Source of the DNA: Candidatus Zixiibacteriota bacterium
Lineage (GTDB): Bacteria > Zixibacteria > MSB-5A5 > GN15 > FEB-12
Assembly (NCBI GenBank): GCA_023132995.1
Contig: JAGLXI010000243.1
Location: 1 to 28,717, forward strand
Direction: 5' to 3'
Length of the DNA stretch: 28,717 bases
Shown here one piece after another: positions 2,260 to 25,404 of this stretch. A program made the position numbers and the translations under genes. The notes under the pieces were generated by a model. That model worked only from the letters and a program-made list of their open reading frames with translations. It had not been told where the DNA came from and searched no databases. Each line of letters opens with the position of its first letter. Within the stretch, counting starts at the first letter, position 1.

Positions 2260-2285
2260 TACGCAACAGCCCCGGCAATGTTTCA
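2260..2285 (-). promoter_or_regulatory. ECF sigma-factor promoter (SigW-like consensus)
   Basis: Minus strand TGAAAC-N16-CGTA, an exact match to the B. subtilis SigW consensus, 35 nt upstream of the DUF2884 start. Confidence 0.6.
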
Positions 2286-2415
2286 CCATGGACTGATGAC
2301 CGGACGAACTACACACACGAAACCCGCGAAGGCTCACCAGCCCATCCCTCTCAGATTTGGACATGAAAACGGAAGATGAGTAGTCCCCCTGCGTTTCGTC
2401 CGGCTCTGCCGCGGG

Positions 2416-5139: not shown

Positions 5140-5251
5140 TGCAGGCGCAACAACCTTGACGGTTTCCGTTCACTTCCCAAGCCGGTCCTCAGGAAGTCAC
5201 ACCCGCGACACCCCTGAAGCCGGCGTCACTCCGGGAAAATCGGTATCTGGA

Positions 5252-5300
5252 AACCGGTTGGCTACAAAAACATCTGTGTCTTTCGTAGTTTGTGCCGGTT
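5252..5300 (-). other. Extended stem-loop in the long leader of the PKD gene
   Basis: Minus strand AACCGG..CTACGAAAGACA-caga-TGTTTTTGTAG..CCGGTT. The inner stem depends on a G-U pair on the minus strand; the equivalent position is an A-C mismatch on the plus strand. Confidence 0.45.
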
Positions 5301-5352
5301 CGGCTCAGAGACCAGGGAGTCCCGGCGGGCGGCGCTCGGTGTGTCAGGAAAC

Positions 5353-5381
5353 ATTGTACGCGTGATAGCATGAACATGCTC
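5353..5381 (-). promoter_or_regulatory. Putative promoter (-10 TACAAT) with a palindromic operator over the -35 position
   Basis: TACAAT at 5353-5358 (minus). AGCATG-aa-CATGCT at 5367-5380 overlaps the position of a -35 element at 17-nt spacing. No canonical -35 is present. Confidence 0.4.
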
Positions 5382-5410
5382 TCGGGAAGAACTCGATGGC
5401 AGCGGGTTCG

Positions 5411-5437
5411 CCGGGGCGGTCTGACAACCCGTCCCGG
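5411..5437 (-). terminator. GC-rich hairpin directly after the COG3014 stop (terminator or REP-like)
   Basis: CCGGGACGG-GTTGTCAGA-CCGCCCCGG, one mismatch, no U-tract. Confidence 0.4.
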
Positions 5438-6838: not shown

Positions 6839-6844
6839 CGGGAC

Positions 6845-7441
6845 TTACCATTTGCGACTGCCCTGGGATATCCCCTTCTTGATCTTCTTGGTCTGGATCC
6901 AGACTTTCTCCATGCTTTCGATGTTGATCAGTTCAAGATCGGTCTGGTAGAAGACCACCCGGTTACTGCCTTCCTGGTCGGTGATCGTTTTGATGGCTCC
7001 CTGGAGGATAAAATCAGCCCCCGTCTCTTCGCGAAGGCGCTTGGCCGTTTCCTTGGAGGCGAATTCCTGCTGTTCGAAACGTTCCTCGCGGATCTCCGAG
7101 CGTTGTTCCTTGCTGGCGACAAACCTGATCTGGGCGGAGTTAATCAATTCACGTTCAAAGTCGGAGATGAATGTCTCCATGGCGATATGTTCGGAGGTAA
7201 GGTTCCTGATCGTGCCGACCGTCACCACCGGCTTGGCTCCCTCGGCGACGGCAAAATCCGTCAGCCAGGGCCGTGAGAGGCAATCAGCGATCATCTCCCG
7301 GGCCACCAGTCGCGAGTCAGTGTCGTTCCAGCGACCGCTCAGGTCGGTCACGGTCTCAGTATCGAGACGAGTTACGGTCTTTCCACCACCACAGCCCAAC
7401 GGCAGGCAGGCTACCAGCAGCAACAGCAACAATTTTCTCAT
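6845..7441 (-). CDS. lpoB: Penicillin-binding protein activator LpoB-like lipoprotein
   Basis: Lipobox PLGC. 'VTRLD....TDLSGRWNDTDSRLVA..MI...L..PW' and 'GADFILQG.I'. Start moved to ATG 7441 to fit the AGGAG spacing. Confidence 0.8.
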   Translation of the reverse strand: MRKLLLLLLVACLPLGCGGGKTVTRLDTETVTDLSGRWNDTDSRLVAREMIADCLSRPWLTDFAVAEGAKPVVTVGTIRNLTSEHIAMETFISDFERELINSAQIRFVASKEQRSEIREERFEQQEFASKETAKRLREETGADFILQGAIKTITDQEGSNRVVFYQTDLELINIESMEKVWIQTKKIKKGISQGSRKW

Positions 7442-7606
7442 CACAACTCCTATTCCTTGGCTTCAAGTTACAGGTATTATCCTTTTCCGGCCGTAAAGCT
7501 ACCGGAGCGGTTTTGGCATGGCAAGTTTTATTGCAAGCCGATTGCCCGGGCGGCACCTGTCAAGCACTGCCCTTATCGATTCCGTTGCTTCGCAGCAAGG
7601 CGGCCT

Positions 7607-8458
7607 CTATTCGGGCCTGCCGCCGACCATCCGGACAGTAACATTAGGGTAGGGTATCTCGATTCCCTTCTCCTCGAACTTCTTTTTCAACCTCTGGTTG
7701 AACTCGCGCCCAATCCCCCACTGCTTGATAGGTTTGGTCTTGAGGCGCGCCTTGATCATCACGGCCGAGTCGCCGAACTGATCAAGCCCAAATATCTCCA
7801 GTGGCTCAAGGATATCCTCCGCAAAGGCAGGATCCTTCCTCAGTTCCCGCCCCACCTCGTGAAGGACTTCGGTCACTTGATCGACATCTTCGCCGTAGCC
7901 GACGCCAATGTCAAGCACCCAGTAGGAATAGTCTTTGGTCATGTTGGTGACCAGATCGATCTTCCCGTTGCGGACATAATGCACACTGCCGGACAGGTCA
8001 CGGAGAACAGTCTGGCGTAGGTTGACCTTTTCGACCAACCCGCTCTTGCCGGCGATCTGTACGACGTCGCCCACCCTGATCTGATCCTCGAGGAGAATGA
8101 AGAAGCCGCTGATCACGTCCTGAACCAGTTGCTGCGCCCCAAAGGCAACCGCGACGCCGACGATACCGGCCGCCGCCAGAACCGGGCCGATCCTGATGCC
8201 CAGTTCGTCGAGCGCCATAACCACCGCCACCACCAGCACCGCCACGTTAACCGCGGACAGCACCACCGACCGGAGCGTGTCGAGACGTTTCCGGGTTTCC
8301 TCAGTGGCCTCGTCACTCAGCATGCGAGCGAACAAACGCCGCAGAAGATTCCGGCCGATCCACAGGACGAGTGTGGTCAGGACAAGTATTACCAGCAGCC
8401 TCAACCCCGTGGTCAGCAGCCAGTCAATAACCGGTCTGAGATAGCTTTCAATATCCAT
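7607..8458 (-). CDS. mscS: Small-conductance mechanosensitive channel (MscS family)
   Basis: Three hydrophobic helices, 'AAAGIVGVAVAFGAQQLVQDVISGFFILLEDQIRVGDVV', 'G.VE..NLRQT.LRDLSG.VHY..NG' and 'GIEIPYP'. Start set at ATG 8458 after AAGGAG. Confidence 0.95.
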   Translation of the reverse strand: MDIESYLRPVIDWLLTTGLRLLVILVLTTLVLWIGRNLLRRLFARMLSDEATEETRKRLDTLRSVVLSAVNVAVLVVAVVMALDELGIRIGPVLAAAGIVGVAVAFGAQQLVQDVISGFFILLEDQIRVGDVVQIAGKSGLVEKVNLRQTVLRDLSGSVHYVRNGKIDLVTNMTKDYSYWVLDIGVGYGEDVDQVTEVLHEVGRELRKDPAFAEDILEPLEIFGLDQFGDSAVMIKARLKTKPIKQWGIGREFNQRLKKKFEEKGIEIPYPNVTVRMVGGRPE

Positions 8459-8615
8459 CGTCACTCCTTGCTCCGTGTGTCGCCTAAAGGCTTGCTCTCA
8501 TTGTTCTCGTGCGCGGTCGGTGTAAGGCTGGGCCGTCGCGCTCTTGATGGCCTCCTCCCCCCATCCCGACAGTCAAAAGGAACTACGGCCCTTGCCGTTT
8601 GTCAAGCGGCGCCGT

Positions 8616-8639
8616 CGATTCCCTGTCGACAGGGAATCG
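8616..8639. repeat. Perfect 24-bp palindrome in a divergent intergenic region
   Basis: CGATTCCCTGTCGACAGGGAATCG is its own reverse complement. Confidence 0.9.
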
Positions 8640-8991
8640 GCCTGATTTCTACTGTGAACGCCCGGCCTGTGACTGCGAACGTGGACCCTGCGAAAGTCAT
8701 AGTAACTGAGGTTTGACATTGACGAGAGTATCCTGAAGGCGCATATTCCTCCGAGCACAGGAACGGCGACGTTGTACAGCGTGGAGGCGCTACCGGCGGC
8801 CTGTCGCAGGCGCTGCATCGGGCCATAGTCAAAGCTGACGAAAACCTGGACCGGGCATCGCCGCGAAACATAGCTATCGCGGATTCGTAAACTTATAGTG
8901 AAGCAGGACCAATCAACGACGCACATACAACTGAGGTTGACCACCCCTGTACCGGGGGTACATCATGTCCCCGGAGATTGGAGGTAGTGCC

Positions 8992-9972
8992 ATGAACGTC
9001 AAGAACCTCTCCCGGATCGTGACGCTGTCGGCGGTTCTGGCCGTGTCTTCCCTGTCGGCCGGAAACTCCGACGAAACTAGGGAACACGAAACGCGCCCCC
9101 CTGACACCAGCATCGCCCGTGTGCTGGAATGCAGCGCGCCGATTGGAATCAATCGCTCCGACGACCCCGCTGTCCATACTGGAACGCGCCTGACACAGCA
9201 GGACACGCTCTACGTCCCCGCCGAAGCGCAGGTGACATTGCTTTTTCACGATGGCCGGGTGGTGCAGTTCGAGGGGCCAACGACGATAGGCCTGCAGTCC
9301 GGGTCAACCGGCAACAGCAAGGGACTTCTGACCAAGCTGGCCGGATCGTTGAGAGAATTGCTCTTTTCCAGTGCTAATGCCGGCCAGGATGTTCAATTGG
9401 GAGTGCGCGACGTCGGCCTGACCTCCCAGGAGAGCCTCACGGTGCCCCGCCTGATCCTGCCTATACCCAATACCAGTCTGAAAGAGGCACCAGGGCAATT
9501 GAGGTGGCAGCCGGTGGAGGGAGTTTTCCTGTACTCCGTGTCCCTTTTTGACAGCAACCAGCTCCTGTGGCAGGGGACAACCAGGAATAACTTCGTCGAT
9601 ATTGCAACGACCGACCTGAACCTGGCGCCGGGCGCTGAGTACACCTGGACCGTGGAGGCTGTTGTCGGCAATTCTTCGCTGCGTTCGCAGCCGGCGACGT
9701 TCTCTATTCTCAGTCAGAGACTCGTAGCGCAACTGAACAATGTCCTGGCTGATATTGACAACATGTCTCTGGATGGAAAATTGGCCGCCCGGTTGAAGCT
9801 GATCGCGCTGAGTGATTTCAACCTGAAGGATGCCTGCTTTGCGCAGGTGCAGGAGATCAGCAGGAGCGATCCCGGCGACTATGCGGCGCGCATGATGAAG
9901 GCGAAATTGCTTGAAGACATGGGCCTGTATGACCGGGCCGCTGAGATATACAAGGCCCTGCTGTTCAAATGA
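8992..9972 (+). CDS. Secreted FecR-like / FN3-like / TPR-like protein, probable partner of the CHASE2 protein
   Basis: Start at ATG 8992 (GGAGGT RBS), signal peptide. N-terminal 'G.RLTQQDTL.VPAEAQVTLLFHDG' is FecR-like. 'LRWQPVEG...Y.V.L...LAPGAEYTWTVEA' is FN3/DUF928-like. C-terminal TPR-like helices. ATGA overlap with the next gene. Confidence 0.7.
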   Translation: MNVKNLSRIVTLSAVLAVSSLSAGNSDETREHETRPPDTSIARVLECSAPIGINRSDDPAVHTGTRLTQQDTLYVPAEAQVTLLFHDGRVVQFEGPTTIGLQSGSTGNSKGLLTKLAGSLRELLFSSANAGQDVQLGVRDVGLTSQESLTVPRLILPIPNTSLKEAPGQLRWQPVEGVFLYSVSLFDSNQLLWQGTTRNNFVDIATTDLNLAPGAEYTWTVEAVVGNSSLRSQPATFSILSQRLVAQLNNVLADIDNMSLDGKLAARLKLIALSDFNLKDACFAQVQEISRSDPGDYAARMMKAKLLEDMGLYDRAAEIYKALLFK

Positions 9973-11903
9973 GTCGGCCAGGTAGTCGGTCACGGTTCTT
10001 GCTCCGTTTCCTGTCGGGTGCCCTCGCCGGGCGGCTGACCGTGGCCCTGCTGTCGTTGTTCGTTTTCGCCCTGGCTCTGAAATACCAGTGGCTTTCCAAC
10101 GTCGATCTGAAGGTCTACGACCTCGGAACGAGGATGAAATCGACAGCGGCCTACTCCGATGTAGCGCTGATTGCGATCGACCACCATTCACTTCAGACCT
10201 GTTTCCCCCGCCCGGCCCTACCGGTCACGAGGCATCTGGCTCAGCACTCGCGACTAATTCAGCGGCTCGATTCCGCCGGTGTAGCCCTGATCGTCCTGGA
10301 CCTGTTATTCGACCAGGCAGACACGGTCGACACCGACAACCTGCGCAGTTTTGCGGACGCTCTCGCGCGCAGCGGGAAAGTCGTCCTGGCCTGCGCTCTT
10401 GAGAGTCACGCTTTAAGCGACACACGGGGCGGCCGGGTCGCCACGCAAACACGGCTGGCTCATCCTCCTGAGGAACTCCGCGAGGCCGCCGTCATCGGAC
10501 TGGTGAACGTGCCGCTCGATCAGGATGGCGTGATCCGACGCTGTTATTTCGGCAGGGTCTTTCAGCGGGACTACCTGCCGTCTCTGTCATCCGTCGTCGC
10601 GGCCTTGTACACGGGCGGCAAGCCGCCGGTGCGAGCGGACCGCTCGGATTTCTACATCGACTACTCGCTGGCCGGCGCGGCAGAGAGAATCCCTTACGAA
10701 CAGATACTCGACGGCGACAACTGGCAGGAGTCCGTCAAGGGGAAAATCGCCATCGTGGGTATGACCGGCAATGGACCCACCGACACCCACCTGACGCCCC
10801 TGTCCCAAGGCGGGGAGGCGGGGTTCTTCAAAATCAGCGGTGTCGAGATCCAGACGCTGGCGGCGCAAACGCTGTTGATGGGAACCAGCCCGAGGCCGAT
10901 GGGCCGGGCTGTGGCTTTCCTGTTGGGAGCTGCCATAATGGTTGTCCTGGGACTGGGTGTGCGAGGACTGAACGCTGTCCTCGGGATGGTCGTGACGGCG
11001 GCCGCCCTCATTCTGCTGGTCGTTGCGGGCTTGCTTGCGGTGGCCGGGTCATCGATGATAATACCCGTGGGGGCCTATGCCGTGGGTATCGTGGGGACGG
11101 GGCTTTTGGCCCTCTCGTCGCGTACCGCCTTTCTGAGGAATCTGGCCGGACGCACTCAGCAGCTCCTATCGGACATCACGAAGGACATGACCGAGGCCGG
11201 CACCATACAGCGGAAATTACAGCCGAAAGAACTGCCGCAGAGCGACAGATTTGATCTCGGGGCAGTGCAGATCACCTGCCGGGAAGTGGGTGGGGACTAC
11301 TACGACGTAGTCGACCTGGGCAATCACAAGTTAGGCTTGCTCGTGGCCGACGTTGCCGGGAAGGGCGTACCCGGCTCACTGATCATGGCCAACATACAGG
11401 GCACGTTCCGGCACCTGGTGGGCAAGTCCGCGTCCCCCGCCGAAATCCTCGCCGAACTCAACAAGACCTCGGTAGGCTCCACCAGCCCGGAGCACAAGTT
11501 TGTCACGCTGTTCTACGGTGTTTTGGATTACGATTCGCGCCAGCTGCAGTACTGCAACGCCGGTCACTGCTATCCAATAGTCTGCTCGGCAGCGGGGAAG
11601 ACGGAGATGCTCAAGGAGAGTGGAGTGCCGCTGGGGCTGTTTGACGGCATGTCATGGCCGACCGGTCATGTTCCACTGCACGAGGGGGATGTGATCTGCA
11701 TTTACAGCGACGGAATCTCCGAGGCGGGAGGCGATGACCCGGAGAAGCAGTTCGGCGAAGATCGAATCGCAGCCTGTGTCAGCAAAAACTGCAACCGTCC
11801 CGCCGCCGAGATAAAGGACTGTTTGCTTGAGACGTGTCAGGAATTCGTAGAGGGAGCTTCTTTTAACGACGACTGGACGCTGGTTGTCGTCAAGCTCGCC
11901 TGA
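9969..11903 (+). CDS. CHASE2-domain sensor fused to a PP2C/SpoIIE (RsbU-like) phosphatase
   Basis: N-terminal TM helix. CHASE2 motifs 'VALIAID', 'LIVLDLLF', 'DQDGVIRR', 'GKIAIVG', 'SGVEIQ'. Three TM helices follow. PPM motifs GGDYYD, VADVAGKG, YSDGISE and DDWT are intact. Confidence 0.9.
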   Translation: MSRPGSRSRFLLRFLSGALAGRLTVALLSLFVFALALKYQWLSNVDLKVYDLGTRMKSTAAYSDVALIAIDHHSLQTCFPRPALPVTRHLAQHSRLIQRLDSAGVALIVLDLLFDQADTVDTDNLRSFADALARSGKVVLACALESHALSDTRGGRVATQTRLAHPPEELREAAVIGLVNVPLDQDGVIRRCYFGRVFQRDYLPSLSSVVAALYTGGKPPVRADRSDFYIDYSLAGAAERIPYEQILDGDNWQESVKGKIAIVGMTGNGPTDTHLTPLSQGGEAGFFKISGVEIQTLAAQTLLMGTSPRPMGRAVAFLLGAAIMVVLGLGVRGLNAVLGMVVTAAALILLVVAGLLAVAGSSMIIPVGAYAVGIVGTGLLALSSRTAFLRNLAGRTQQLLSDITKDMTEAGTIQRKLQPKELPQSDRFDLGAVQITCREVGGDYYDVVDLGNHKLGLLVADVAGKGVPGSLIMANIQGTFRHLVGKSASPAEILAELNKTSVGSTSPEHKFVTLFYGVLDYDSRQLQYCNAGHCYPIVCSAAGKTEMLKESGVPLGLFDGMSWPTGHVPLHEGDVICIYSDGISEAGGDDPEKQFGEDRIAACVSKNCNRPAAEIKDCLLETCQEFVEGASFNDDWTLVVVKLA

Positions 11904-11925
11904 GTTGCACAAACCCCGACGTTTT

Positions 11926-12119
11926 GGCCCACAAGACTGTCCGTGGGGCCGTCTCAAACTTGTTTGGCACGGACTACAGTCGCCGTATCCAGGTGAGTTG
12001 CCCATAGGAACCCACCTGCCGCTTCGCTCTCGGTGGGGTACCGGCGTGGCCCGGACATCTGTCCGGGTCTCAATGCAACAGTACATCAAGTGAGAAACCC
12101 GGACGAACGTCCGGGCCAC
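11926..12119. repeat. Mosaic cluster of REP-like palindromes between convergent genes
   Basis: CCCACAAGACTGTCCGTGGG; GTGGGGCCGTCTCAAACTTGTTTGGCACGG (11943-11972); CAGGTG...CACCTG hairpin (11990-12018); inverted doublet GTGG-CCCGGAC-N4-GTCCGGG (12046-12067 plus, 12098-12119 minus). Confidence 0.75.
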
Positions 12120-12215
12120 CCAGCCATAATATACAAATCCATGCGTTATCTTGAATCGGAATTGTCACTTTGTCAAAGGGAAAACCCGTTACGCTCAAGG
12201 GAAAAGGACGTTGTG

Positions 12216-12449
12216 TCAGCCTGAGATTTCGTAATCGTAGGCACTCCCCTGAATTCTGCATTTTCCTCTCCATCTGCCGTTGTTGAACGTGGCAGAGCAA
12301 GATACCTTAACACTGGATTTCCCATATGTCTTTCGCAATGCTTTGCGAGTAGCCTGCGTGATACGCTTTTCACTCAGGTACTTGAATGGCTTGTTTCTTC
12401 CGAGTCCCGGCAAAACCGTAGAAAAACCGTTTGTAACGCAAAGTTTCAT
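12216..12449 (-). CDS. Small basic hypothetical protein (77 aa)
   Basis: MKLCVTNGF...YDYEISG. ATG 12449 is preceded by GGAAGAGGG, 43 nt after the upstream gene. K/R-rich. No family recognised. Confidence 0.55.
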   Translation of the reverse strand: MKLCVTNGFSTVLPGLGRNKPFKYLSEKRITQATRKALRKTYGKSSVKVSCSATFNNGRWRGKCRIQGSAYDYEISG

Positions 12450-12492
12450 TTTGCGGACCCTCTTCCTATCGTTGACAAAACACACTCTTCTT

Positions 12493-13218
12493 TCAGAATC
12501 GATGGAAAGCCCCTGTTTGGAGTTCTGGATTTACCTTGGCAATTCTCTCCAGGAGTTGTTCGACACGCCCTATGTGCTGGTTGTACTTCTCTTTCATCAT
12601 TCGTCGCTGGTCATCATAGGCTCTAACTGAGCCATCTTCAGGCATCTTCATGATTGCCAGTTCACGGACGACATCCGCAGTATCACGATATAACCTTACG
12701 ATGTGTCTGACTATGTCCGTAAATGGCGCATTACTAATCAGGCCCGGATTTGCAAAGGTCAGCAAAGACCAATGCCAATCCTCAAGGAGATGGAGACGTT
12801 CTGCTAACCGTTTGAGTTGCGGGTGTACGGATTGATCTTGAACAACAGAGTTACAGATTGAGTCGACGTAGGCTCGGAGGGAGTTGGACGCATTCGGCTC
12901 AAACAGCATACGGGCTTCTTGGAGGAGTCCGGCGAGTTCGAGAAGAGTCCGACGTTGCTGTCGTCTTCTACCAATGGACGCAATCCATCCCCTAAAGAGG
13001 TGCGATGCAGGGATTATACTGAGCACGAGAGTTACCATGAATGCTATCCCGATGAAGCCGAGAATCGGATAACGTGCCCACAGCGGTATGGATTCCCAGT
13101 CGGTGAATAGCGAAATCGAAAATCCCACGACCCCGCCGATCAACATAAGAATTAGCTGACTGCGCGCCACTGGGGAAAGTCGCGGCCGTTCTTCGTTTAG
13201 TTGTTTCTCCCATTCCAT
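12493..13218 (-). CDS. Hypothetical membrane protein, two N-terminal TM helices + helical soluble domain
   Basis: 241-aa ORF with two hydrophobic segments (about residues 21-39 and 46-72) followed by RRRQQRR. Lower GC than flanks. No family recognised. Confidence 0.8.
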   Translation of the reverse strand: MEWEKQLNEERPRLSPVARSQLILMLIGGVVGFSISLFTDWESIPLWARYPILGFIGIAFMVTLVLSIIPASHLFRGWIASIGRRRQQRRTLLELAGLLQEARMLFEPNASNSLRAYVDSICNSVVQDQSVHPQLKRLAERLHLLEDWHWSLLTFANPGLISNAPFTDIVRHIVRLYRDTADVVRELAIMKMPEDGSVRAYDDQRRMMKEKYNQHIGRVEQLLERIAKVNPELQTGAFHRF

Positions 13219-13401
13219 CGATACTTCTCGAGCCTCATTAATGAGTTCTTGCCAACTTACACTAGATCATGGCTTGCGGTTCTACGCCTCGGGCCATGTG
13301 CCAGCATCGCTATACCAATCACAGTTTAGACAACACCCTAACCAGTCGCAATCACTTTTCGGCCATACTACATTGGCAGTGGTTTATCCGGGATTTACCT
13401 G

Positions 13402-16400
13402 CTAACTCGTCAGCTTGGCAAGCCGTGCGCGAGTGTCGGTGATAATGTCAATCTCGATCTCGGGCTCGCCCCAGTATTTGAGGACTTCCCGGTATTTGGC
13501 GGTTGCCTGCGGGATATTGCCTAGGCCTTCTTCAGCCATGCCTATATAATAGACAGCGCGCAGATAGTAGCGGGCCGAGCTTGTCTGGCGCGGTCCAGAG
13601 GTCAACTCCTGAAGGAATTCCCTGCCCCTTGCGTATTGGCCGGTCAGCACCAGAAGCTCACCCAGGTCCAGAACGCTGCTTGTGTTCCGTTGATTGGGCA
13701 TCGCAATCATTCTCTCACTGGCTGCGATCATGGCGCTGGTATCAGCCCGGCAAAGCGCGTCGAACACCTCCTCGATGACGTCGCCGATTTCCCAGAATTC
13801 AGAGGGCACTCTCGACTTGAATTCGGCCAGCGCCTCGCCAAACAACTCGCGGGCTCTGGGTGCATTGTCGGGATTCAATTTCACGAGGAGAAACGGGTAG
13901 GAGAGCGTCTGGAACCTCGAAGCCCACCGCGATGACTCGTCCGCGAAGATGGCTGCGCTGTCCAGCATGTCCAGGTCGATAAGAGAGTTCGCCAGTCTTT
14001 GGCACTGGCTCGATACCTGGGCGCTGTCGCCAGTTAGTCGTGCCTGCTCAAGACCCTCTATCTGGTAACCCAAAGCTGCATTGAACTTGCCCTGCCAGTT
14101 GGCAAGATTGGTTATCGTGGAAAAATAGGTCCTCATGAGGAACGGATCGTCCGCGTGATTCTCCTTGATCCTCTCGGCGGAGCCTTCGGCCTCCTCGAAG
14201 TTGCGCTGTAGTATGTGAACCCTCGTCAGCAGGACCAGCGCGGAGCTATTCCCGGGATCAATCCTGAGGAGTTCCTCACATTCATCGGCCGCCTCAGCGT
14301 ACTTTCCCAACCGCTGGTAGAGTGAGGCCAGGGTCTCGTACGAGGTTGGTGACGCGGGGTGGTACCTCTTGATCAGTGCGGCATGCTCGATAGCCTTTTC
14401 GTACTCTTCCTCTTCCCGGAAATGATTTGCCAGCAAGTCGTGCGCCATCAGGGATTTCGGATCGAGCATCAGCACCGTATCAAGCTGAGCCAGGGAGCCG
14501 GGCTTATCGTCTACAATCTGGCTGAGAAACAGGGAATAGAACGTCCTGGCTTCTTTGTCGTCGGGATAGTTGCCCACAAACGTTCGCAGCTTGACAAAGG
14601 CATCGTCGAGTTTCGTATTGAGCCAGGTGTCAGCGTAGATGTCCAGCATGTTCTTCTCTCGCAGCGGCAGCCTGTCCTCAAAACGTTTTGCTGCCGCGAA
14701 GTATGATGCCCCCAACTGCTGATGTCCCTGAAAGATGTGGGCCATACCGATTCTCATGTAGGGGAGAGCGAAGGTTGAGTCGATAGCAATGGCCTTCTCG
14801 AATTGGTCTATGGCATCACCCCAATGACGACCGTCGAACTTTTCGAGTCCCACAACGTAGTGCCGGTAGGCCTCCGGTGACGATGAAGTGATATCGGCCA
14901 CCTGCCGATTCTCCGCCAACAGCTCTTTGACGTTCAGTGATTGAGCGATCTTCTGCGTGAGACTGTCCACCAGTATGAACGGATCGGCCCCGACCACTTT
15001 CTCAGCAAGAATGATCTGGCCGGACGCGACGTCTTCGAGCCGGGCGTCGATCCTGATCCTGTCTCCCAGCTTATAGTAAGCGCCGGCCAATACGGTCGTT
15101 GCGCCCAGCTTCCTGGCGGCAGCTACCCACTCCCCGTGAGTGAGAGTCCCAGCGGCGCTGTCGACCACTTCGTTGAGGCAGTCAAGCATGCGGCTGCGGC
15201 TTATCAGGTTCACCGCGCCGCTCTGGGCCAGATCGGTCAGAAGAATCTCGGGGAGTCCGGCGCTGAGCCAGTCAAGGGCGGCGTCCCCGGTTTTGTTCTG
15301 AAAGCCCAGGATGGCCAGTCCATTCACCGCCCTGGAAAAGCCGGGAATCTCGAAGTACTTATCCCCGACATCTATGCCCTGCTCGGCCAGAGTCCGGGTG
15401 ATCCGTTCGCCAAGGTTCTCGACGAATGCCAGCGGGTCATCCTCCGCCGTTTTTTCCCTGGTTCCACTGAAAAAGGCTACCGTCGCAATTAAGATCAGGA
15501 GCACGGCAACGGCGCCGATGAGCCTGGGCGCAGTTATAGTGAACCGGCGGCGTCTTTTCCCAGCCAGGAGAATCTCACTGCTGACCGAGCTTGTCTCCGA
15601 TATCCCGCTATCATACTGGCGACGCAGACTGCGCAGATCGACGACCAGGTCGCGCGTGTCCTGGTAACGGTCATTGGGGTCTTTGTGCAGGCACTTGTCG
15701 ACGATTCTCTCCAACTCCGCCGGCGCCGTTTCATTCCTCTGCCTGAGAGGAACATGCCGGCCCTCGAGTATCTTGGCCAAGGTAGAGACCCGGTCGGGTC
15801 CGTCAAACGCTGGTTGTCCGGCAAACATTCTGTACAGAAGGATACCGAACGAGAAGCAGTCGGACCTGGCATCAACCGCCTCACCGCGCGCCTGTTCCGG
15901 TGACATGTAGGACACAGTGCCCAGAATCTTGCCCTCCTGGGTCAATTCCCCGGACATGGTGTTAGTGCCGCCATCTCCCCCAAACAGTCCGGCGTCCACC
16001 GGCTTTGCCAGACCAAAATCGAGAATTCTGGGTTCGCCCTGCTCGTCAATCATGATGTTGTCGCTCTTGATATCGCGATGCACGATGCCCAGCTTGTGCG
16101 CGGCGGCGAGTCCGGCAGCTATCTTCTCCGCAATGCGCAGCAGCTCGGTCATGTCCGGACTACGGGTCGCCAGATGGTCGGTCAGTGACTGGCCACTGAT
16201 GTGTTCCATGACAATGTAGGTTAAATCCCGACCGGATTCCTTATGATGCGCCGAATCCATGTCATAGATGGCCATGACATTGGGATGAGATATTTTCGCG
16301 GCCGTTTTGGCTTCCCGGCTGAAGCGGCTCATGCGGTCGGCGTCGTCGACAAACTCCTCCTGGAGGATTTTCAGAGCGACATTCCGGTTGAGCTTTCGAT

Positions 16401-16491
16401 CTTCCGCGAGGTAGACTTCGCCCATGCCGCCCTCGCCGAGCTTGCGCACGATCCTGAAGTGTGCTATGTCCTGACCTGCCTGAAACATCAT
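13402..16491 (-). CDS. Membrane Hanks-type Ser/Thr protein kinase with extracytoplasmic TolB-N/FlgO-like domain and TPR array
   Basis: LGEGGMGEVY, VALKIL, HRDIKSDN, DFGLAK and GTVSYMSPEQ. One TM helix after KRRRR. 'LAILGFQNKTGD..LDWLSAGLPE.L.TDL' domain followed by multiple TPR-like repeats. Confidence 0.95.
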   Translation of the reverse strand: MMFQAGQDIAHFRIVRKLGEGGMGEVYLAEDRKLNRNVALKILQEEFVDDADRMSRFSREAKTAAKISHPNVMAIYDMDSAHHKESGRDLTYIVMEHISGQSLTDHLATRSPDMTELLRIAEKIAAGLAAAHKLGIVHRDIKSDNIMIDEQGEPRILDFGLAKPVDAGLFGGDGGTNTMSGELTQEGKILGTVSYMSPEQARGEAVDARSDCFSFGILLYRMFAGQPAFDGPDRVSTLAKILEGRHVPLRQRNETAPAELERIVDKCLHKDPNDRYQDTRDLVVDLRSLRRQYDSGISETSSVSSEILLAGKRRRRFTITAPRLIGAVAVLLILIATVAFFSGTREKTAEDDPLAFVENLGERITRTLAEQGIDVGDKYFEIPGFSRAVNGLAILGFQNKTGDAALDWLSAGLPEILLTDLAQSGAVNLISRSRMLDCLNEVVDSAAGTLTHGEWVAAARKLGATTVLAGAYYKLGDRIRIDARLEDVASGQIILAEKVVGADPFILVDSLTQKIAQSLNVKELLAENRQVADITSSSPEAYRHYVVGLEKFDGRHWGDAIDQFEKAIAIDSTFALPYMRIGMAHIFQGHQQLGASYFAAAKRFEDRLPLREKNMLDIYADTWLNTKLDDAFVKLRTFVGNYPDDKEARTFYSLFLSQIVDDKPGSLAQLDTVLMLDPKSLMAHDLLANHFREEEEYEKAIEHAALIKRYHPASPTSYETLASLYQRLGKYAEAADECEELLRIDPGNSSALVLLTRVHILQRNFEEAEGSAERIKENHADDPFLMRTYFSTITNLANWQGKFNAALGYQIEGLEQARLTGDSAQVSSQCQRLANSLIDLDMLDSAAIFADESSRWASRFQTLSYPFLLVKLNPDNAPRARELFGEALAEFKSRVPSEFWEIGDVIEEVFDALCRADTSAMIAASERMIAMPNQRNTSSVLDLGELLVLTGQYARGREFLQELTSGPRQTSSARYYLRAVYYIGMAEEGLGNIPQATAKYREVLKYWGEPEIEIDIITDTRARLAKLTS

Positions 16492-18182
16492 GTGGCAATC
16501 CTCTTGAGCATCAACATTGTGATATCATCCGAGCGGGGAGCGTCTCCCATGAAGCCGTTAATGTCGTCCATGAGGTGGCCGACTATTCCCTCCGGCGACT
16601 CCCCCCTCGTGGCCAACAGTAGTTTTTCCAGTCTCTGCTCGCCATACAGATCCTCGCCGCGTTGGGCTTCGGTTACTCCGTCGGAGAAAACCGTCAGCAC
16701 GTCTCCCTCGTGCATTTCAACCGATCCCTCCTGCCAGGTGGCGAAATCAAAAGCCCCGATCATGAGTCCCGAGGCCTCTAGTTGCGTTACGGAGCCGTCG
16801 GCCGTGACCAGCAAGGGGGGATTGTGCCCGGCGTTGATATAGCGGATGGTGTTTCTATTCTGTTCCGCCAGACCGATAAAGAGAGTGGCGAAGTCACCGG
16901 ACACACTATTGCTGAACAACTGAAGCGAAACGCGCTCGACCGCTCTCGTGAGGTCGAACCGCTTGGATTCATACAGAATCCGGAACGATGCCAGTATGTT
17001 GGACATCAGCAAAGCCGCGCCCATGCCTTTGCCCGAAACATCTGCGACCATAAAGAGCAACCGGCCGTCGGGGAGCAGCCTGGTGTCGTAGAGGTCCCCC
17101 CCTACCAACCGCGACTGCTCCTGGAACGGGCACATTTGGTATCCTGGAAGTTCCGGGGGGGAGTCCGGCAGCAGGCTTTTCTGGATCTGCGAAGCCCGAC
17201 TCAACTCGGCGGCGATGATCTGTTTTTCCTGCCGCTCCGACACCAGGGCGTAGCTGAGCAGTTTGGAGGCTATGATATTGCCGAACGTAGCCAGCACTCG
17301 CAGGTGGTGGTCATCATAGGTGTGTGCCGGGTTGGTCGTATCGGCATAGAGGATTCCAAGGACCTTCCCTTCGTCGAACAAAGGAACCGCGATGGCCGAT
17401 TTCAGTTCCGACATGATAATGGACTGCTGCTGGGCAAAGCGGGGATCGTCCTCGGGATCGCAGATCAAAATGGCGTTTTTGTTGCTAATGATCTCGTTGA
17501 CGATGGTACGCGACAAGGTGAAAGCGCCCGGCTCCCGGCCGCCGGGAAGCAATGTAGCGGCAGTGTAGACTTCTTCCTGATTCTCAGATACGAACAGCAC
17601 CGCCAACCGCTGCGCCGAAATGACCTTGGAGATCATACCCAGCGACCGCTCCAACATCACGTGCTTCGGCTCCGGGAGAACCAGCATCTTGGCCATCTCA
17701 AACAGGGTTGCAAGAAGGTCGGGCCGGTCGGTGACCTTGGCCGGAAGTGGTTTGAGCGCCTCGTTGATGGACAGAAAAACCGAGTTCTGGGGCTCGCTTT
17801 CGGCAAGTTTGGTCTGAGTCGTGCTGAGCGGCACACTCTCGGTTTCATCGATAGCCGCCAGCCGAAATTCGGTATGGCCGAACACGATGAGGTCGTCCTG
17901 CTTCACCGTCGTCCGGCCGGATAGTCGCTCGCCGTTAACCAGCGTACCGTTGTGGCTGCCGAGGTCTGTCAGAAAGATCTGCTCAACAGACGACCCCACT
18001 TCCAACTCAGCATGCCTTCTGGATATCGTGCCGTGAGGAATACAGAAATCACATTCCTGCTTACGGCCAATGAGGTACTTCCCTTGCCTGAGTACCCAGG
18101 AATAGAACCGTTTCCCGTCGGTGCCAACCAGCTTCAACATAGAATAAACAGGCCTGCTCTCGTCAAGTTCCAACCTCTGCAT
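16488..18182 (-). CDS. FHA-GAF-PP2C/SpoIIE phosphatase
   Basis: FHA 'IGRKQECD...ISRRHAEL...DLGSHNGTLVNG'. GAF 'SRTIVNE...SAIAVPL..EGKVLGILYAD'. PPM motifs GGDLYD, VADVSGKG, FSDGVTE and DDIT. ATGA overlap with the kinase gene. Confidence 0.92.
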   Translation of the reverse strand: MQRLELDESRPVYSMLKLVGTDGKRFYSWVLRQGKYLIGRKQECDFCIPHGTISRRHAELEVGSSVEQIFLTDLGSHNGTLVNGERLSGRTTVKQDDLIVFGHTEFRLAAIDETESVPLSTTQTKLAESEPQNSVFLSINEALKPLPAKVTDRPDLLATLFEMAKMLVLPEPKHVMLERSLGMISKVISAQRLAVLFVSENQEEVYTAATLLPGGREPGAFTLSRTIVNEIISNKNAILICDPEDDPRFAQQQSIIMSELKSAIAVPLFDEGKVLGILYADTTNPAHTYDDHHLRVLATFGNIIASKLLSYALVSERQEKQIIAAELSRASQIQKSLLPDSPPELPGYQMCPFQEQSRLVGGDLYDTRLLPDGRLLFMVADVSGKGMGAALLMSNILASFRILYESKRFDLTRAVERVSLQLFSNSVSGDFATLFIGLAEQNRNTIRYINAGHNPPLLVTADGSVTQLEASGLMIGAFDFATWQEGSVEMHEGDVLTVFSDGVTEAQRGEDLYGEQRLEKLLLATRGESPEGIVGHLMDDINGFMGDAPRSDDITMLMLKRIAT

Positions 18183-18211
18183 GTGCGGATGTTTGGTGCA
18201 CGATCAGGCGC

Positions 18212-18344
18212 AAGTTAAACCGGACGCAGAACAGGGGCAAGCGGTTTCTCGGGACAGGTCGCGCTGGGTCTCATGGCGAGCGGCCGCGATGCGACCAGAA
18301 GGCTCACCAAAACCGCTTGCACTGAGAACTTGACGGCCTATTTT
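18212..18344. promoter_or_regulatory. Divergent promoter pair with an 11-bp inverted repeat at both -35 regions
   Basis: Minus TTGCCC-N17-TAACTT (18240-18212). Plus TTGCAC-N16-TATTTT (18317-18344). GCAAGCGGTTT (18237-18247) is the reverse complement of AAACCGCTTGC (18310-18320). Confidence 0.5.
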
Positions 18345-18453
18345 GCCGTTGGGGAATTATTGCGGGAGTATCCTGTCCGCATCCCCGAGGAAGGCTGGCC
18401 GGGAAACCCGGTCACAAGATTTCAAGCCGCTGGCTCAGACACTGGGAGTACCA

Positions 18454-18792
18454 ATGAAGTTTACTGATTCGCTTGAGGGAGACATCGTCTGTTTTGAGAT
18501 GTCCGGCAAGATTATGGGTGGAGAGAACACGACTCTATTCTACGGCAAGGTTTGCGAATATGTCAACCTCAACAAGAAGAGCATCATACTCGACATGGCC
18601 AAGGTCGACTGGATCAACTCGATCGGCCTGGGCATGCTGATTACAGCCCTGACCACCACGCGAAACGCCGGTGGGCACCTGGTATTGTGCAACATTGACA
18701 AAATCGAGAATCTTCTCACGGTCACGCGCCTGATCACGGTCTTCGATCACTTCGATTCGCGGGAGCAGGCAACAGCTTCTTTTAGCAACTGA
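18454..18792 (+). CDS. STAS-domain anti-sigma factor antagonist (RsbV/SpoIIAA-like)
   Basis: Start at ATG 18454 (GGGAG RBS), 112 aa. 'IILDMAKVDWINSIGLGMLI' keeps the phospho-acceptor Ser. Also 'LLTVTRL..VF'. Confidence 0.9.
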   Translation: MKFTDSLEGDIVCFEMSGKIMGGENTTLFYGKVCEYVNLNKKSIILDMAKVDWINSIGLGMLITALTTTRNAGGHLVLCNIDKIENLLTVTRLITVFDHFDSREQATASFSN

Positions 18793-18876
18793 GTCCCGGA
18801 ACACCAAGGCCAAGCCGATCCCCAAGACGATTTCCCTTCGTCACCTGTCGTCAGGCGTCGTGCAGGGAGAGGCTGT

Positions 18877-19170
18877 CCCAAAAGATTCCGTGGGCGTCTG
18901 CCGCCCCGGTTGTTCTATGTCAAGACATTGTTTACAGGTTGTATCCAGTCTCCGAGCAAAACCTGGATTCCGGGTCAAGCCCGGAATGACAATGGGTAGT
19001 TGCGTCGGGTGGCCGTTTCAAACTTGTTTGGAACGGGAATTCAGCCCGGGAAGAGACACCCCCAAGTTTGAGGATGCCACCCAGCAGGCATTGCCGGTTT
19101 TATCCGTGGGCGGCGACTCCCTCGGTCTGCCAATGACCGACGTCCACCCGGATGTGTTTGAGGGGATGGA
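18877..19170. repeat. Second mosaic cluster of REP-like / dRS3-like palindromes between convergent genes
   Basis: CCCAAAAGATTCCGTGGG (18877-18894); CTGGATTCCGGGTCAAGCCCGGAATGAC (18963-18990); GTGG-CCGTTTCAAAC-TT-GTTTGGAACGG (19009-19036) with a degenerate inverted partner (19057-19080); TCGGTC-N7-GACCGA (19122-19140). Confidence 0.75.
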
Positions 19171-19187
19171 GGGGGTTGGGGTCGGCC

Positions 19188-20270
19188 TCAGTGAGTATCC
19201 GAAGCTGCGGCACCCGTAATGTTCAAACGGGGGGCAAGTTCGGGTATAGAACGTAATTTCTCAAGGATCTTCTCGCAGGCAGGGTCCACGTTATGTGGAT
19301 CAAGCGAAACACCCTGAATACGACTCATAAGACCATAAGGCTTTTCGTAGACTGCTTCCCCGGTCATTAAGGGGCATACTGTCTTGTCTGAACCCATAGC
19401 CCAGCCACATTCTTGGTTCGTCCATAGGGACTTCCAGAATTCCTTTGTCAACAGGAGAACAATCACATCACAGGCGATTAGTTCTTCTATTATCTGAGAC
19501 ATCCAGAACACCGATACATGAAGGTCGTCGTGCGCCATGAAAACCTGAATACGATCGTTTATCAGTCCATCCTTTACTTTACCGGCCAGGTCTTTGTCAT
19601 GAGTCGAGTAGCTCATAAAGATTTTGACCTTGGTTGACACGATATCGTTGCGACTCTTGAGGAGGTCTTCGATTTCTCGTTGCTTGGCCGGATCCGGGTT
19701 GATCTTGTACAATAGCACCTTATCGACAAATCGTGGGAACTCCTTCCACCCCCTTATGCTAACAAACAGACCACCCTCCGTAAGGTCCTTTAGCCAGTCA
19801 GTCAGATCTTTTTTGCTGTCATAGAAGTTGTCCTGCAGGTGCGGAAGCCCCACTCCCTGCTGAGGCCACTTACTATTAATCGCTCCTATGAATTGCAAAA
19901 TCTCCAGCTTAAGCTGCTGTGGCTCCAACACCCTTGACTGCACTTGCTCATCAAGGGCTTTTTGAGTCAGGAGAAACTCCGACTCTTCAGGGTTAAGCGC
20001 CTTGGAAACCAAGCCAAACCGTATCGCTGTGTCATGAGTGCGGGGACTGACAACTTCTTGAGCGTCAATTTCGGCCACGCGGCTTGACACCTTAACCACA
20101 AACTGCATTCCTTCCTCCGCCGTTGGAGAGGAAGAGTCTCTGAATGCATACCAGACTGGTATTTGGTTCAGAGGTTGAGATGTCGTATTCGGCCCAGCCT
20201 GGCCGACGTCCACCCTGAATCGATACGGTCGACCGTCTATTACCGATAGCACATCGCTGAAGTGATCCAC
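19188..20270 (-). CDS. TIR-domain protein (C-terminal TIR) with an unassigned N-terminal region of about 210 aa
   Basis: 'KIFMSYSTHDKDLA...VFMAHDDL...ACDVIVLLLTKEFWKSLWTNQECGWA' keeps the catalytic-position Glu. GTG start directly after the secA stop. Lower GC than secA. Confidence 0.85.
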   Translation of the reverse strand: MDHFSDVLSVIDGRPYRFRVDVGQAGPNTTSQPLNQIPVWYAFRDSSSPTAEEGMQFVVKVSSRVAEIDAQEVVSPRTHDTAIRFGLVSKALNPEESEFLLTQKALDEQVQSRVLEPQQLKLEILQFIGAINSKWPQQGVGLPHLQDNFYDSKKDLTDWLKDLTEGGLFVSIRGWKEFPRFVDKVLLYKINPDPAKQREIEDLLKSRNDIVSTKVKIFMSYSTHDKDLAGKVKDGLINDRIQVFMAHDDLHVSVFWMSQIIEELIACDVIVLLLTKEFWKSLWTNQECGWAMGSDKTVCPLMTGEAVYEKPYGLMSRIQGVSLDPHNVDPACEKILEKLRSIPELAPRLNITGAAASDTH

Positions 20271-23246
20271 CTACTCCCCCTTGCCGTGGCATTTTTTGAA
20301 TTTCTTGCCGGAGCCGCAGGGGCAGGGATCGTTGCGGCCGACCTTGGGCATCTGACGACGAAAAGTGCGGTCCTGCTTGCCGGCCTGGGAAGCCTCGGCC
20401 ATGGGGTTTTTCTCCTGTGGAGCACCGTCCACCGACGGTGGCGGGGCGGACAGGCCCATGCCGGTCGAGTCGGCGTGCGAGGTGACCATCTGTGGTTCGC
20501 GGCGGCGCTCGGAGCGTGACTTCTCAGGCACGTTCACCCGCAGCTTGTAGACGAGATTGACAATCTCCCGGTCGACCGTCTCAACCATGCCCTGGAATAT
20601 CTTGAACGCCTCGCGCTTGTAGATGTCTATCGGTTTGCCCATCCCGCCGTGGTAGGCCCGCAGGCCGATCCCCGCCCGAAGCTCCTCGACTTCGGCAAGG
20701 TGGTCGCGCCAGTGGCGGTCGATTGTCGACAGTACAGCGTAGCGCTCCAACTGGCGCATGACTTCCTCGCCGTAAGTGGCTTCCTTCTGCGTGTAGAAAG
20801 CCATGATCGCCCCCAGGATCTTCTCCTTGAGCGATTCGCGCGTCAGCTTCTCGATATCCTCCGGCTTGAACTGGAGGTTGAGCAAGTAGATATTGCGCAG
20901 TTCCTCGGTGAAGCCCTTCAGGTTCCACTCCTCGGGGTAAGTCTTCTCTGGGCAGTGGACGTCGATAAGACCCACGAGGACATCTTCGATCAGCTCCACT
21001 ACTTCGTCCTTGATCGATTCCCGTTCGAGGGCGGCCAGGCGGCGCTCGTAGATCCATTTGCGCTGGACGTTCATCACGTCGTCATAGTCGAGCGTGTGTT
21101 TGCGGATGGCGAAGTTCTGGGCCTCGACTTTTTTCTGTGCCCGTTCAATGGCCTTGGTCACCATGCCGTGAGCGATGACCTCGCCTTCCTCGACACCCAG
21201 CTTGTCCATGACCGTGCCCAGGCGGTCACCGCCGAACAGGCGCATGAGGTCATCCTCGAGCGAGAGGAAAAACAGCGAAGAGCCGGGGTCGCCCTGGCGG
21301 CCGGCCCGTCCGCGCAACTGGCGGTCGATACGCCGTGATTCGTGACGCCCCGTGCCGACGATGTGCAACCCGCCGCGTTCCACCACGCCCTTACCGAGCT
21401 TGATGTCCGTGCCGCGCCCGGCCATGTTGGTGGCGATCGTCACGGCACCGCTACCTCCGGCGTGGGCAATGACCTCCGCCTCTTTCTGGTGGTGCTTGGC
21501 GTTGAGGACGTTGTGCGGTATTCCGGCTCTCTTGAGCATGCGGGAAAGGGTCTCGGAGACGTCGACCGTGACAGTGCCCACGAGTGCCGGCTGGCCCTTT
21601 TCGTGCTTCTCTCTTATCTCCTCGATGATGGCATTGTATTTCTCATGGCGGGTACGGTAGATCCGGTCGTCCCGGTCATCGCGCACGACCTGTACATTGG
21701 TCGGAATGACCATGACGTCCAGCTTGTAGATGTCGAAAAACTCTTGCGCCTCGGTTTCGGCGGTTCCGGTCATGCCTGCGAGCTTGTCGTACATGCGGAA
21801 GTAGTTCTGAAGAGTCACCGTCGCGAGCGTCTGCGATTCCGCTTCGATGCGAACCCCCTCCTTGGCCTCGATAGCCTGGTGGAGGCCGTCGCTGTAGCGG
21901 CGACCGGCGAGGATACGGCCGGTGAACTCATCGACAATCATCACTTTGCCGTCCTGGACGACATATTCGGCGTCCTTCTCATACAGCGAATAGGCGCGCA
22001 GGAGCTGGCTTATGGCATGCACTTTCTCGGAGCGTTCGCCGTGGACGCGGTAAATCTCGTCCGTCTTCTGCTGACGCTCTTCGGCCGAGAGTGACTCGTC
22101 GCCGTCAAGCTCCGAGAGCATGGTGGAGATGTCCGGTATTTCGAACAGCTTCTGCTCCTCGGGGGACAGTTGCATCGTGCCCGTGTCGGTCAGGGCGATG
22201 GTGTGCTCCCGCTCGTCAATGAAGTAGTGGAGGTGGTCGTCGATCTCGTGCAGTTTCTTGTCGCGCATGAAAGCTGACTCGACGCTCGTCATCAGCTTTT
22301 TCATGCCCGGCTCTTTGAGAATTTTGAGCAGTCGTTTGGCCTTGGGAGCACCCCGGTTAACCGCCAGCAACTGGATGCCGGCCTCGAATTCGTCTTCGGC
22401 TTTCTCGCCGGCAAGCAGCTTTTCCGCGTTAGAGAGCATATCGTTGATAAGCACCGTCTGCTTGCGGACGATCTTCTCGACCGTCGGCTTCATCTGGCGG
22501 TAGCGGTCATGCCCCGACGATTCCACCATGCCGGAGATTATCAGGGGGGTTCGGGCCTCGTCGACAAGGATGGAGTCGACTTCGTCAATAATGGCATAGT
22601 GGAAATTGCGATGGGCGCGGTCTTCGGCCCGCTGGCACATGTTGTCTCGAAGGTAGTCGAACCCGAACTCATTGGCGGTGCCGAAAGTGACGTCGCACGA
22701 GTACATTTCGCGGCGCTCGGCGTTGGTCATCTGGTTCTGGATAACGCCCACGGTGAGGCCGAGATACTCGTAGATCTTGCCCATCCAGTCACAGTCGCGG
22801 CGGGCGAGGTAGTCATTGACCGTGACGATATGAACTCCCTTGCCTTCCAGGGCGTTGAGATAAACCGGCAACGTGGCCACGACCGTCTTGCCCTCGCCGG
22901 TGGCCATCTCAGCGATCTTTCCCTGGTGGAGCGCGATCCCGCCGATAAGCTGAACGTCAAAGTGGACCATGTTCCACTCGGTCTCGATTCCGGCCACGTC
23001 CCACGTTTGACCCAGATGACGGCGGCAGGCCTCTTTGACCACGGCGAACGCCTCCGCCATGATGTCATCGAGCGTCTCACCGTCCTCAAGACGCTTTCTG
23101 AAATCGTCAGTCCTGGCTTTGAATTCGTCTTCGCTCTGCTTCTGCAGTTCGTCGTAGAACTGGTTTATCTCATCCACCAGCGGCTGCATCTTTTTGGCGT
23201 CCCGCTCGTGCTTGGTGCCGAATATCTTTGTGATCAGGTTCTTCAT
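20271..23246 (-). CDS. secA: Preprotein translocase subunit SecA
   Basis: [51 protein letters not shown] and C-terminal Zn motif [14 protein letters not shown]. Confidence 0.99.
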
Positions 23247-23280
23247 ATCCTCGCGCAGTCTTAAGCGTTAAGTCACTCTG

Positions 23281-23309
23281 AGCATACGAAATTCACGCCG
23301 TCAAGGCAA
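23281..23309 (-). promoter_or_regulatory. Putative sigma70 promoter of secA
   Basis: Minus strand TTGCCT-N17-TATGCT. Confidence 0.55.
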
Positions 23310-23528
23310 TCACAGTGTTTTGGGCCAATTGTGGGCGGCACCGGCGTTGCTGGTTTTTACGGATTGGTACCCTACCTAAAACAGGGGCGGCAGGTGGTGT
23401 ACTTCCTTTTACCCACTCGATGCTGTCTGTGTGGGGTACCTCTGTTGTGCTCCACGCCGATCAGACAATGGACGCTGGCCAGTTTGTTCTTGATACCTGA
23501 CAACAGGCGCGGTAGATTCCATCTGTAT

Positions 23529-24434: not shown

Positions 24435-24497
24435 ACGCGCAAGCGGGAATGCCAACTTTAACAAATACCTGTAACTTACCGATAAGGTAGATACAAT

Positions 24498-25400: not shown

Positions 25401-25404
25401 CGTT

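Follow-up and report, generated by a model that had tools for sequence, protein, structure and literature searches.

A conserved receptor Hanks kinase and FHA-GAF-RsbU-type phosphatase pair, and its species-specific juxtaposition with a STAS gene, in a cold-seep Zixibacteria genome

Introduction

Hanks-type receptor kinases with their FHA readers and the RsbU/SpoIIE-STAS switches are usually studied separately, and a locus in which genes of both kinds lie within 10 kb raises the question of whether they work as one circuit. Such a locus is carried by a Candidatus Zixiibacteriota bacterium on a stretch of 28,717 nucleotides (assembly GCA_023132995.1, contig JAGLXI010000243.1, positions 1 to 28,717 of the forward strand), which is called the window below. 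The window is contig C161 of a cold-seep Zixibacteria metagenome-assembled genome (MAG), designated G000, whose assembly comprises 2.45 Mb in 347 contigs and is scored 91% complete; several conserved genes are probably absent from it. The sequencing runs in which the window sequence is found are likewise cold-seep metagenomes.

A first-pass annotation made from the sequence had described a CHASE2-PP2C phosphatase, a transmembrane Hanks kinase, an FHA-GAF-PP2C phosphatase and a divergently transcribed STAS gene, and had joined them into a partner-switching circuit without RsbW. All four genes are present, and Pfam agrees with their assignment, the coordinates differing by a few bases; the position given for the start of the first gene, 8992, has to be corrected, since the gene for the 335-residue protein that opens the stretch begins at 8965. 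The circuit as a whole is a species-specific juxtaposition. What emerges from the comparison with related genomes is a real but narrower finding, namely the pairing of a receptor Hanks kinase with an FHA-GAF-RsbU-type phosphatase that is widespread and uncharacterised. The genes in question are the following:

8965..9972, plus strand: 335-amino-acid protein (TPR335) with a weak TPR match in Pfam
9969..11903, plus strand: CHASE2-SpoIIE phosphatase of 644 amino acids (Pfam CHASE2 E 7.5e-37, SpoIIE E 2.5e-45)
13402..16491, minus strand: receptor Hanks Ser/Thr kinase of 1029 amino acids (Pfam Pkinase E 3.9e-48, TPR families, weak TolB_N-like match)
16488..18182, minus strand: FHA-GAF-SpoIIE (RsbU-type PP2C) phosphatase (Pfam FHA 1.1e-18, GAF 2.3e-12, SpoIIE 3.5e-45)
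18454..18792, plus strand: single-domain STAS protein of 112 amino acids (Pfam STAS 2.3e-8, in the open reading frame 18343-18792)

Conservation of the kinase and phosphatase pair

The comparison set consisted of 41 genomes of one order, G000 and 40 relatives. Full-length orthologues of the FHA-GAF-PP2C protein, with 46-88% identity, were found in most of the relatives, and its surroundings were studied in 15-kb stretches round the orthologues of 30 relatives and in another 80 loci taken from a species-wide genome collection, which makes 110 loci. In 25 of the 30 relatives' loci the kinase gene directly follows the phosphatase gene on the same strand, and one more locus carries a degenerate kinase. 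The kinase gene has this downstream position in every further Zixibacteria locus with enough flanking sequence (16 of 16). Outside Zixibacteria, mostly in Acidobacteriota and chiefly in Pyrinomonadaceae, the gene order is the opposite: a Hanks kinase is encoded upstream on the same strand in 56 of 63 loci, and for five of the seven exceptions the upstream sequence is missing. That the pairing is retained in two phyla, with either gene order, is good evidence for a functional link. In the window the phosphatase stop and the kinase start share four nucleotides (ATGA), which agrees with the translational coupling described earlier; the likely start of the phosphatase, according to gene callers and alignment with relatives, is Met15 at 18140. 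The kinase and FHA-GAF-PP2C genes are a conserved, co-transcribed pair, and the functional coupling of their products is very probable.

No third conserved gene, which might have encoded a substrate, was found near the pair when all open reading frames of the 30 loci were clustered; the other clusters were antisense shadow reading frames only, together with an unannotated reading frame of 395 amino acids in six of the 30 loci. The STAS, CHASE2-PP2C, TIR and SecA proteins of the window were found in none of these 30 loci. In the nearest relative (G001, 88-95% identity, which also served as the reference for the synteny mapping of the window), the neighbours of the pair are genes for a methyltransferase, OsmC and a TPR protein. 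Within 6-7 kb of the FHA-GAF-PP2C gene no STAS or RsbW gene was detected in any of the 110 loci (0 of 30 and 0 of 80), the STAS search being based on an iterated profile of the three STAS types of G000, which is weak on very divergent STAS sequences. Thus, of the linkage of kinase, FHA-PP2C and STAS genes proposed for the window, the part that concerns the kinase and the phosphatase is kept in two phyla, and the part that concerns STAS is not seen in the relatives.

An Acidobacteriota MAG carries a cluster of four genes (L135, positions 2861-7596) encoding a Zn-ribbon-FHA protein, a Zn-ribbon-Pkinase-Zn-ribbon-FHA protein, an RDD membrane protein and an FHA-GAF-SpoIIE protein. The full cluster was annotated only at this locus; an upstream kinase at similar spacing is present in the 56 of 63 non-Zixibacteria loci mentioned above.

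Domains and catalytic motifs

The kinase comprises a kinase domain (residues 13-276), one hydrophobic, membrane-type segment at about 316-346 and a following TolB_N-like and TPR region. As this segment is the only one, the C-terminal 680 residues with the TolB_N-like/TPR region are predicted to lie outside the cytoplasm. The P-loop, Lys41, HRD and DFG elements are intact and are conserved in 25 orthologues, over which Thr184 and Thr192 of the activation loop are invariant. In the phosphatase, the FHA domain has the same phosphothreonine-binding residues (Arg40, Ser54, His57 and Asn78) in all of 102 sequences, and these sequences also conserve the PP2C motifs GGD, DVSGKG, NAGHNPP, SDG and DD, so that the metal-binding motifs are intact. 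Given the conservation of the pair and the intact FHA, PP2C and kinase motifs, the link between kinase and phosphatase through the FHA domain, as originally suggested, is well grounded; the four-part circuit without RsbW that was built on it is unsupported.

By its sequence, the PP2C domain belongs to the partner-switching class. The solved structures most closely related to it are those of RssB of Pseudomonas aeruginosa (E 2.7e-18), Rv1364c and SpoIIE, and no chains of the PstP/PrpC type were among the solved-structure matches. Matches in NCBIfam to RssB, SpoIIE and SiaA remained below the cut-off (72 vs 700 bits), and proteins of FHA-GAF-PP2C architecture are labelled in databases as "SpoIIE family protein phosphatase" or "RsbU". 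A separate PstP-like PP2C_2 phosphatase is encoded in one copy in 37 of the 41 genomes searched. In G000 itself, which encodes about 10 Hanks kinases, neither PP2C_2 nor PP2C was matched, and this absence is most likely a gap of the 91%-complete assembly.

Origin of the gene cluster

Mapped on G001, the window is a mosaic. Positions 3-11904 match contig C2 of G001 at 191.6-203.8 kb, 13433-18253 match contig C30, 18291-18839 (550 bp with the STAS gene and its upstream region) match contig C12, and 20270-28491 match C2 again, at 32-44 kb, distant from the first C2 block. Between the blocks there are dispersed repeats, at 11995-12043 and 18840-19245, and genes to which no DNA of G001 matches, i.e. 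the TIR gene and two reading frames of 241 and 89 amino acids, for which no family match was found either. The features at and between the block boundaries are:

11926..12119, no strand: dispersed short REP-like repeats at the synteny break that separates the CHASE2 and kinase blocks
12216..13218, minus strand: two orphan open reading frames of 241 amino acids (two hydrophobic segments) and 89 amino acids; inserted accessory DNA
18254..18290, no strand: junction at which, in the comparison with G001, the kinase/phosphatase synteny block (up to 18253) gives way to the STAS block (from 18291)
18840..19245, no strand: cluster of dispersed short repeats at the next synteny break, with copies on many contigs of G000 and G001
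19188-20270, minus strand: TIR-domain protein (Pfam TIR_2 E 3.7e-12)

The repeats, of 30-140 bp, occur at 11926-12119, 18840-19245 and 28466-28552 and have copies on dozens of contigs of both genomes. They sit exactly at the breaks of synteny with G001, beside the genes without a DNA match there, and look like REP-type elements marking hot spots of rearrangement or insertion.

The genes of TPR335 and CHASE2-PP2C also overlap by four nucleotides (ATGA), and the CHASE2 domain is flanked on each side by hydrophobic segments according to hydropathy. This unit is collinear with G001; the CHASE2 region was detected in G000 and G001 only and was not found in the 39 other relatives. TPR335 and CHASE2-PP2C may therefore have been acquired recently, and CHASE2-PP2C, previously taken as a second input into the circuit, is an accessory gene shared by two close species and not a conserved second input.

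A mosaic of this kind could also be an assembly chimera, in which unrelated metagenome pieces were joined at short repeats; the dispersed repeats at two of the three block boundaries and the breaking of the assembly into 347 contigs are in line with such an origin. However, the 18253-18291 junction contains no repeat, and an identical STAS gene is present in an NCBI assembly, in ENA scaffolds of three further samples and in an independent Logan contig. The phosphatase gene is visible beside it in five of the six places, where the flanks are long enough, and two long contigs (33 and 93 kb) repeat the whole layout from the 241-amino-acid reading frame to MlaD. As these samples were assembled separately, the adjacency of the STAS and phosphatase genes is real and not a misassembly, and the chimera, which is hardly credible, was rejected.

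The adjacency is restricted to this species and post-dates its split from the relative with 88-95% identity. There is little doubt that the STAS and CHASE2 genes came beside the pair by recent, non-conserved events; they were brought there by a species-specific rearrangement at repeat-rich sites and are not conserved members of the module. In the comparison of genomes the cluster falls apart into three units without relation to each other: the kinase/phosphatase pair, the STAS gene and the CHASE2 gene.

The STAS gene

Independent gene calls agree on ATG at 18454 as the start of the STAS gene. Every one of the 41 genomes encodes an orthologue; identity is 95% for the nearest relative, 57-69% for members of the family and about 50% for the order as a whole. 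The serine described earlier as intact is Ser56, which aligns with Ser58 of SpoIIAA and is invariant, together with the motif V-[DE]-W-x-N-S-[VI]-G-L-G-M-L, in 33 distinct sequences. Ahead of the STAS fold the protein has 8-10 residues; the 33 orthologues do not conserve Thr4, and there is no conserved N-terminal threonine or extension.

In complete or near-complete relatives the STAS gene and the pair are separated by 0.3-2.5 Mb or lie on different contigs. Twenty stretches of 14 kb centred on STAS orthologues of relatives contained none of the signalling genes of the window and no RsbW-type kinase of the HATPase_c_2 family. The usual neighbours encode a DUF5916/CBM9 protein, PhzF, UvrD, an HDOD protein and Lon, and the copy in G001 adjoins the genes for RNase R and homoserine dehydrogenase. 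The STAS gene is thus a conserved orphan, beside which none of the relatives examined has a signalling gene. G030, a relative with a completeness score of 100%, keeps the STAS orthologue and lacks FHA-GAF-PP2C.

RsbW kinases and partner-switching modules elsewhere

The statement that RsbW is missing holds for the window, whose contig gave no HATPase_c_2 match, but not for the genome. A search for RsbW-like kinases revealed two complete PP2C/RsbW/STAS modules on other contigs of G000. On contig C168 the genes for GAF-PP2C, RsbW and STAS are followed by that of a HEAT-repeat protein; on contig C146 a fused RsbW-sCache-HAMP-PP2C protein is followed by STAS and a GGDEF protein. The HEAT-repeat protein, of 635 amino acids, directly follows the C168 module (L202, positions 2936-6971) and may serve this switch as its output partner. 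The C146 fusion (L200, positions 670-5359, minus strand) is 684 residues long and consists of HATPase_c_2 (RsbW-type), sCache, HAMP and SpoIIE domains, the GGDEF protein being a diguanylate cyclase; proteins of 678-695 amino acids with RsbW-type and SpoIIE domains, adjoined by a STAS gene, are encoded in relatives. This arrangement recalls the SiaABCD-type control of cyclic di-GMP synthesis.

The closest paralogue of the window STAS protein (39-49% identity) heads an operon with a 162-residue RsbW and a PP2C protein of about 755 residues in nearly all relatives. In G001 this STAS-RsbW-PP2C operon is located on contig C5 (L205, positions 4082-7220), and the N-terminal part of its PP2C protein is large and unannotated. 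Neither the operon nor its NUDIX and histidine-kinase neighbours were found in the G000 assembly, perhaps owing to the incompleteness of the latter. Inventories of five good genomes gave three or four full modules each, and the conserved orphans in them were FHA-GAF-PP2C, a PP2C protein of about 595 residues and the window-type STAS. In complete relatives the latter is the only single-domain STAS without an RsbW or PP2C neighbour of its own, and the RsbW genes elsewhere each adjoin another STAS gene. By this count the window STAS stays a candidate substrate for the orphan phosphatases. The RsbW of the paralogous operon is the ordinary candidate for the kinase that phosphorylates the window STAS protein.

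Other features of the window

The TIR gene lies directly behind secA. Its product showed weak ThsB/ThcB4-like matches, far under the cut-offs, and a shorter form of 306 amino acids appears in the gene calls of other assemblies. PADLOC matched the kinase only through generic kinase domains and left the phosphatase and STAS unmatched; a reading of the locus as a defence system was dropped. Pfam scans of the large open reading frames of the window turned up no sigma-factor domain, in agreement with the earlier annotation, and no other candidate output. Promoter and terminator scans of 11850-19300 gave results no better than those for shuffled sequence.

Discussion

The reading that we prefer, tentatively and at not quite an even chance for the statement as a whole, is that of a two-gene module in which a receptor kinase controls an FHA-gated RsbU-like phosphatase with a STAS-type output. 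An envelope signal at the outer TolB_N-like/TPR region would activate the kinase, which would form phosphothreonine on itself (at Thr184/Thr192 or in the membrane-adjacent segment) or on the phosphatase. The FHA domain would bind this phosphothreonine, and the binding, together with a ligand of the GAF domain, would switch the PP2C domain on or off. The likeliest substrate would be a phospho-STAS protein phosphorylated by an RsbW-type kinase encoded elsewhere, and the module would act as the kinase-gated input phosphatase of a partner-switching network. A STAS-type substrate is proposed on account of the catalytic domain, which is of the partner-switching class; this output, taken by itself, is held to be a little less probable than its opposite. 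The STAS protein of the window is one candidate substrate among several.

Several points weigh against this reading. Both the FHA-kinase binding and the enzymatic steps are predictions from sequence, and the STAS output is deduced from the family of the catalytic domain, a STAS gene being linked to the pair only here. As the linkage with STAS or RsbW genes was looked for and not found in relatives, the pair does not count as a demonstrated component of a partner-switching system. The Acidobacteriota cluster contains no STAS or RsbW gene and resembles phosphothreonine clusters in which a PP2C phosphatase simply opposes the kinase. From another side, the unpaired STAS and the orphan FHA-GAF-PP2C keep a dedicated link between the two alive, even in a model without RsbW.

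FHA-GAF-PP2C might instead be the dedicated antagonist of the kinase, recruited by its FHA domain to phosphothreonine of the kinase and of the kinase's substrates, which it would then dephosphorylate, with the GAF domain tuning the reset and with no STAS protein involved. A Hanks kinase is indeed the only conserved neighbour of the phosphatase, the 110 loci are free of STAS and RsbW genes within 6-7 kb, and in the FHA-rich kinase cluster of Acidobacteriota the phosphatase stands at a position like that which a PstP-type phosphatase occupies in actinobacterial kinase clusters. The catalytic domain, however, is of the SpoIIE/RsbU family, with RssB, Rv1364c and SpoIIE and not PstP or PrpC as its nearest solved relatives, and the characterised substrates of this family are STAS-fold proteins. 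Moreover, the PstP-like PP2C_2 already present in 37 of the 41 genomes would be able to serve Hanks kinases. An antagonist of this kind is possible, though on the unlikely side. The circuit of the first-pass annotation would have the Hanks kinase phosphorylate Ser56 of the STAS protein, with the kinase-docked FHA-PP2C reversing the reaction and CHASE2-PP2C as a second input. The invariant Ser56 is probably phosphorylated by something, the window-type STAS has no RsbW neighbour in the 20 loci of relatives, this STAS and FHA-GAF-PP2C are an unpaired single-domain STAS and an unpaired phosphatase in complete relatives, and in this species their genes stand side by side at a real junction. A Hanks kinase acting on a STAS protein also has a precedent in PknD of Mycobacterium tuberculosis and Rv0516c (PMC1847690), which was invoked in support of the circuit. 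The precedent stands as far as the choice of substrate is concerned; it does not extend to the site, since PknD phosphorylates Thr2 of a unique N-terminal extension and not the consensus site (PMC1847690), and the window STAS has no conserved N-terminal threonine. The adjacency, besides, is found in one species after its split from a close relative, the CHASE2 region in only two of 41 genomes, G030 keeps the STAS orthologue without FHA-GAF-PP2C, and the closest STAS paralogue belongs to a conserved RsbW operon, an obvious candidate for cross-phosphorylation. A switch without RsbW is therefore improbable, and equally so that the move of the STAS gene beside the phosphatase was a functional clustering event, which it would be if such a switch existed.

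The preferred two-gene module has partial counterparts among known systems. PknD-Rv0516c is similar in combining a receptor Hanks kinase with a single-domain STAS protein and in joining two kinds of signalling; it differs in the extension and threonine discussed above, and the link of the window STAS to the kinase is an adjacency in one species only. Membrane Hanks kinases encoded next to an FHA partner are known from M. tuberculosis (PknH-EmbR and PknF-Rv1747) and from P. aeruginosa (PpkA-Fha1-PppA, a system that includes a PP2C phosphatase). The present pair resembles these in the intact FHA protein and in the conserved adjacency, but here the FHA domain is fused to GAF and to an RsbU/SpoIIE phosphatase, so that reader and eraser are one protein, and the pair has no linked transcription factor, transporter or secretion system.

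With the RsbU/RsbP-RsbV-RsbW and SpoIIE-SpoIIAA-SpoIIAB switches the phosphatase shares the SpoIIE family, the intact metal motifs and an N-terminal sensor, as in RsbP (PAS) and RsbU; the STAS serine occupies the position of SpoIIAA Ser58, and canonical modules exist in G000. Unlike these switches, the pair has no RsbW or sigma-factor gene beside it in the 110 loci, the STAS linkage is not conserved, and the input is an FHA domain, i.e. a read-out of a Hanks kinase, instead of an RsbT-binding or PAS domain. RssB and SiaA of P. aeruginosa have STAS-like partners and work outside the control of sigma factors. Among solved structures RssB stands closest to the PP2C domain, and both proteins are the best NCBIfam phosphatase matches, at scores far under the cut-offs; their N-terminal part is a receiver or HAMP domain, and that of the present protein is FHA-GAF. 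A fusion of FHA with a SpoIIE-like phosphatase was catalogued as sce0876 of Sorangium cellulosum in a genome survey (PMC2887360), which reported neither a kinase partner nor a GAF domain nor a function for it; the same fusion is seen here, with the GAF domain and the kinase partner in addition. The literature search returned catalogues of FHA-SpoIIE proteins and the PknD precedent, and no characterised pair of an FHA-SpoIIE protein with a kinase.

The history of the window carries a caution, since four genes that make a persuasive "circuit" may have come together only recently, as a mosaic that arose from repeat-rich rearrangement sites. What has been kept beside its kinase in two phyla is a phosphatase of the partner-switching kind that bears a reader domain of the Hanks kind, and the pair looks like a hard-wired junction of Hanks-kinase and partner-switching signalling. 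It is tempting to speculate that, in uncultured phyla, such a module might offer envelope signals a way into partner-switching networks.

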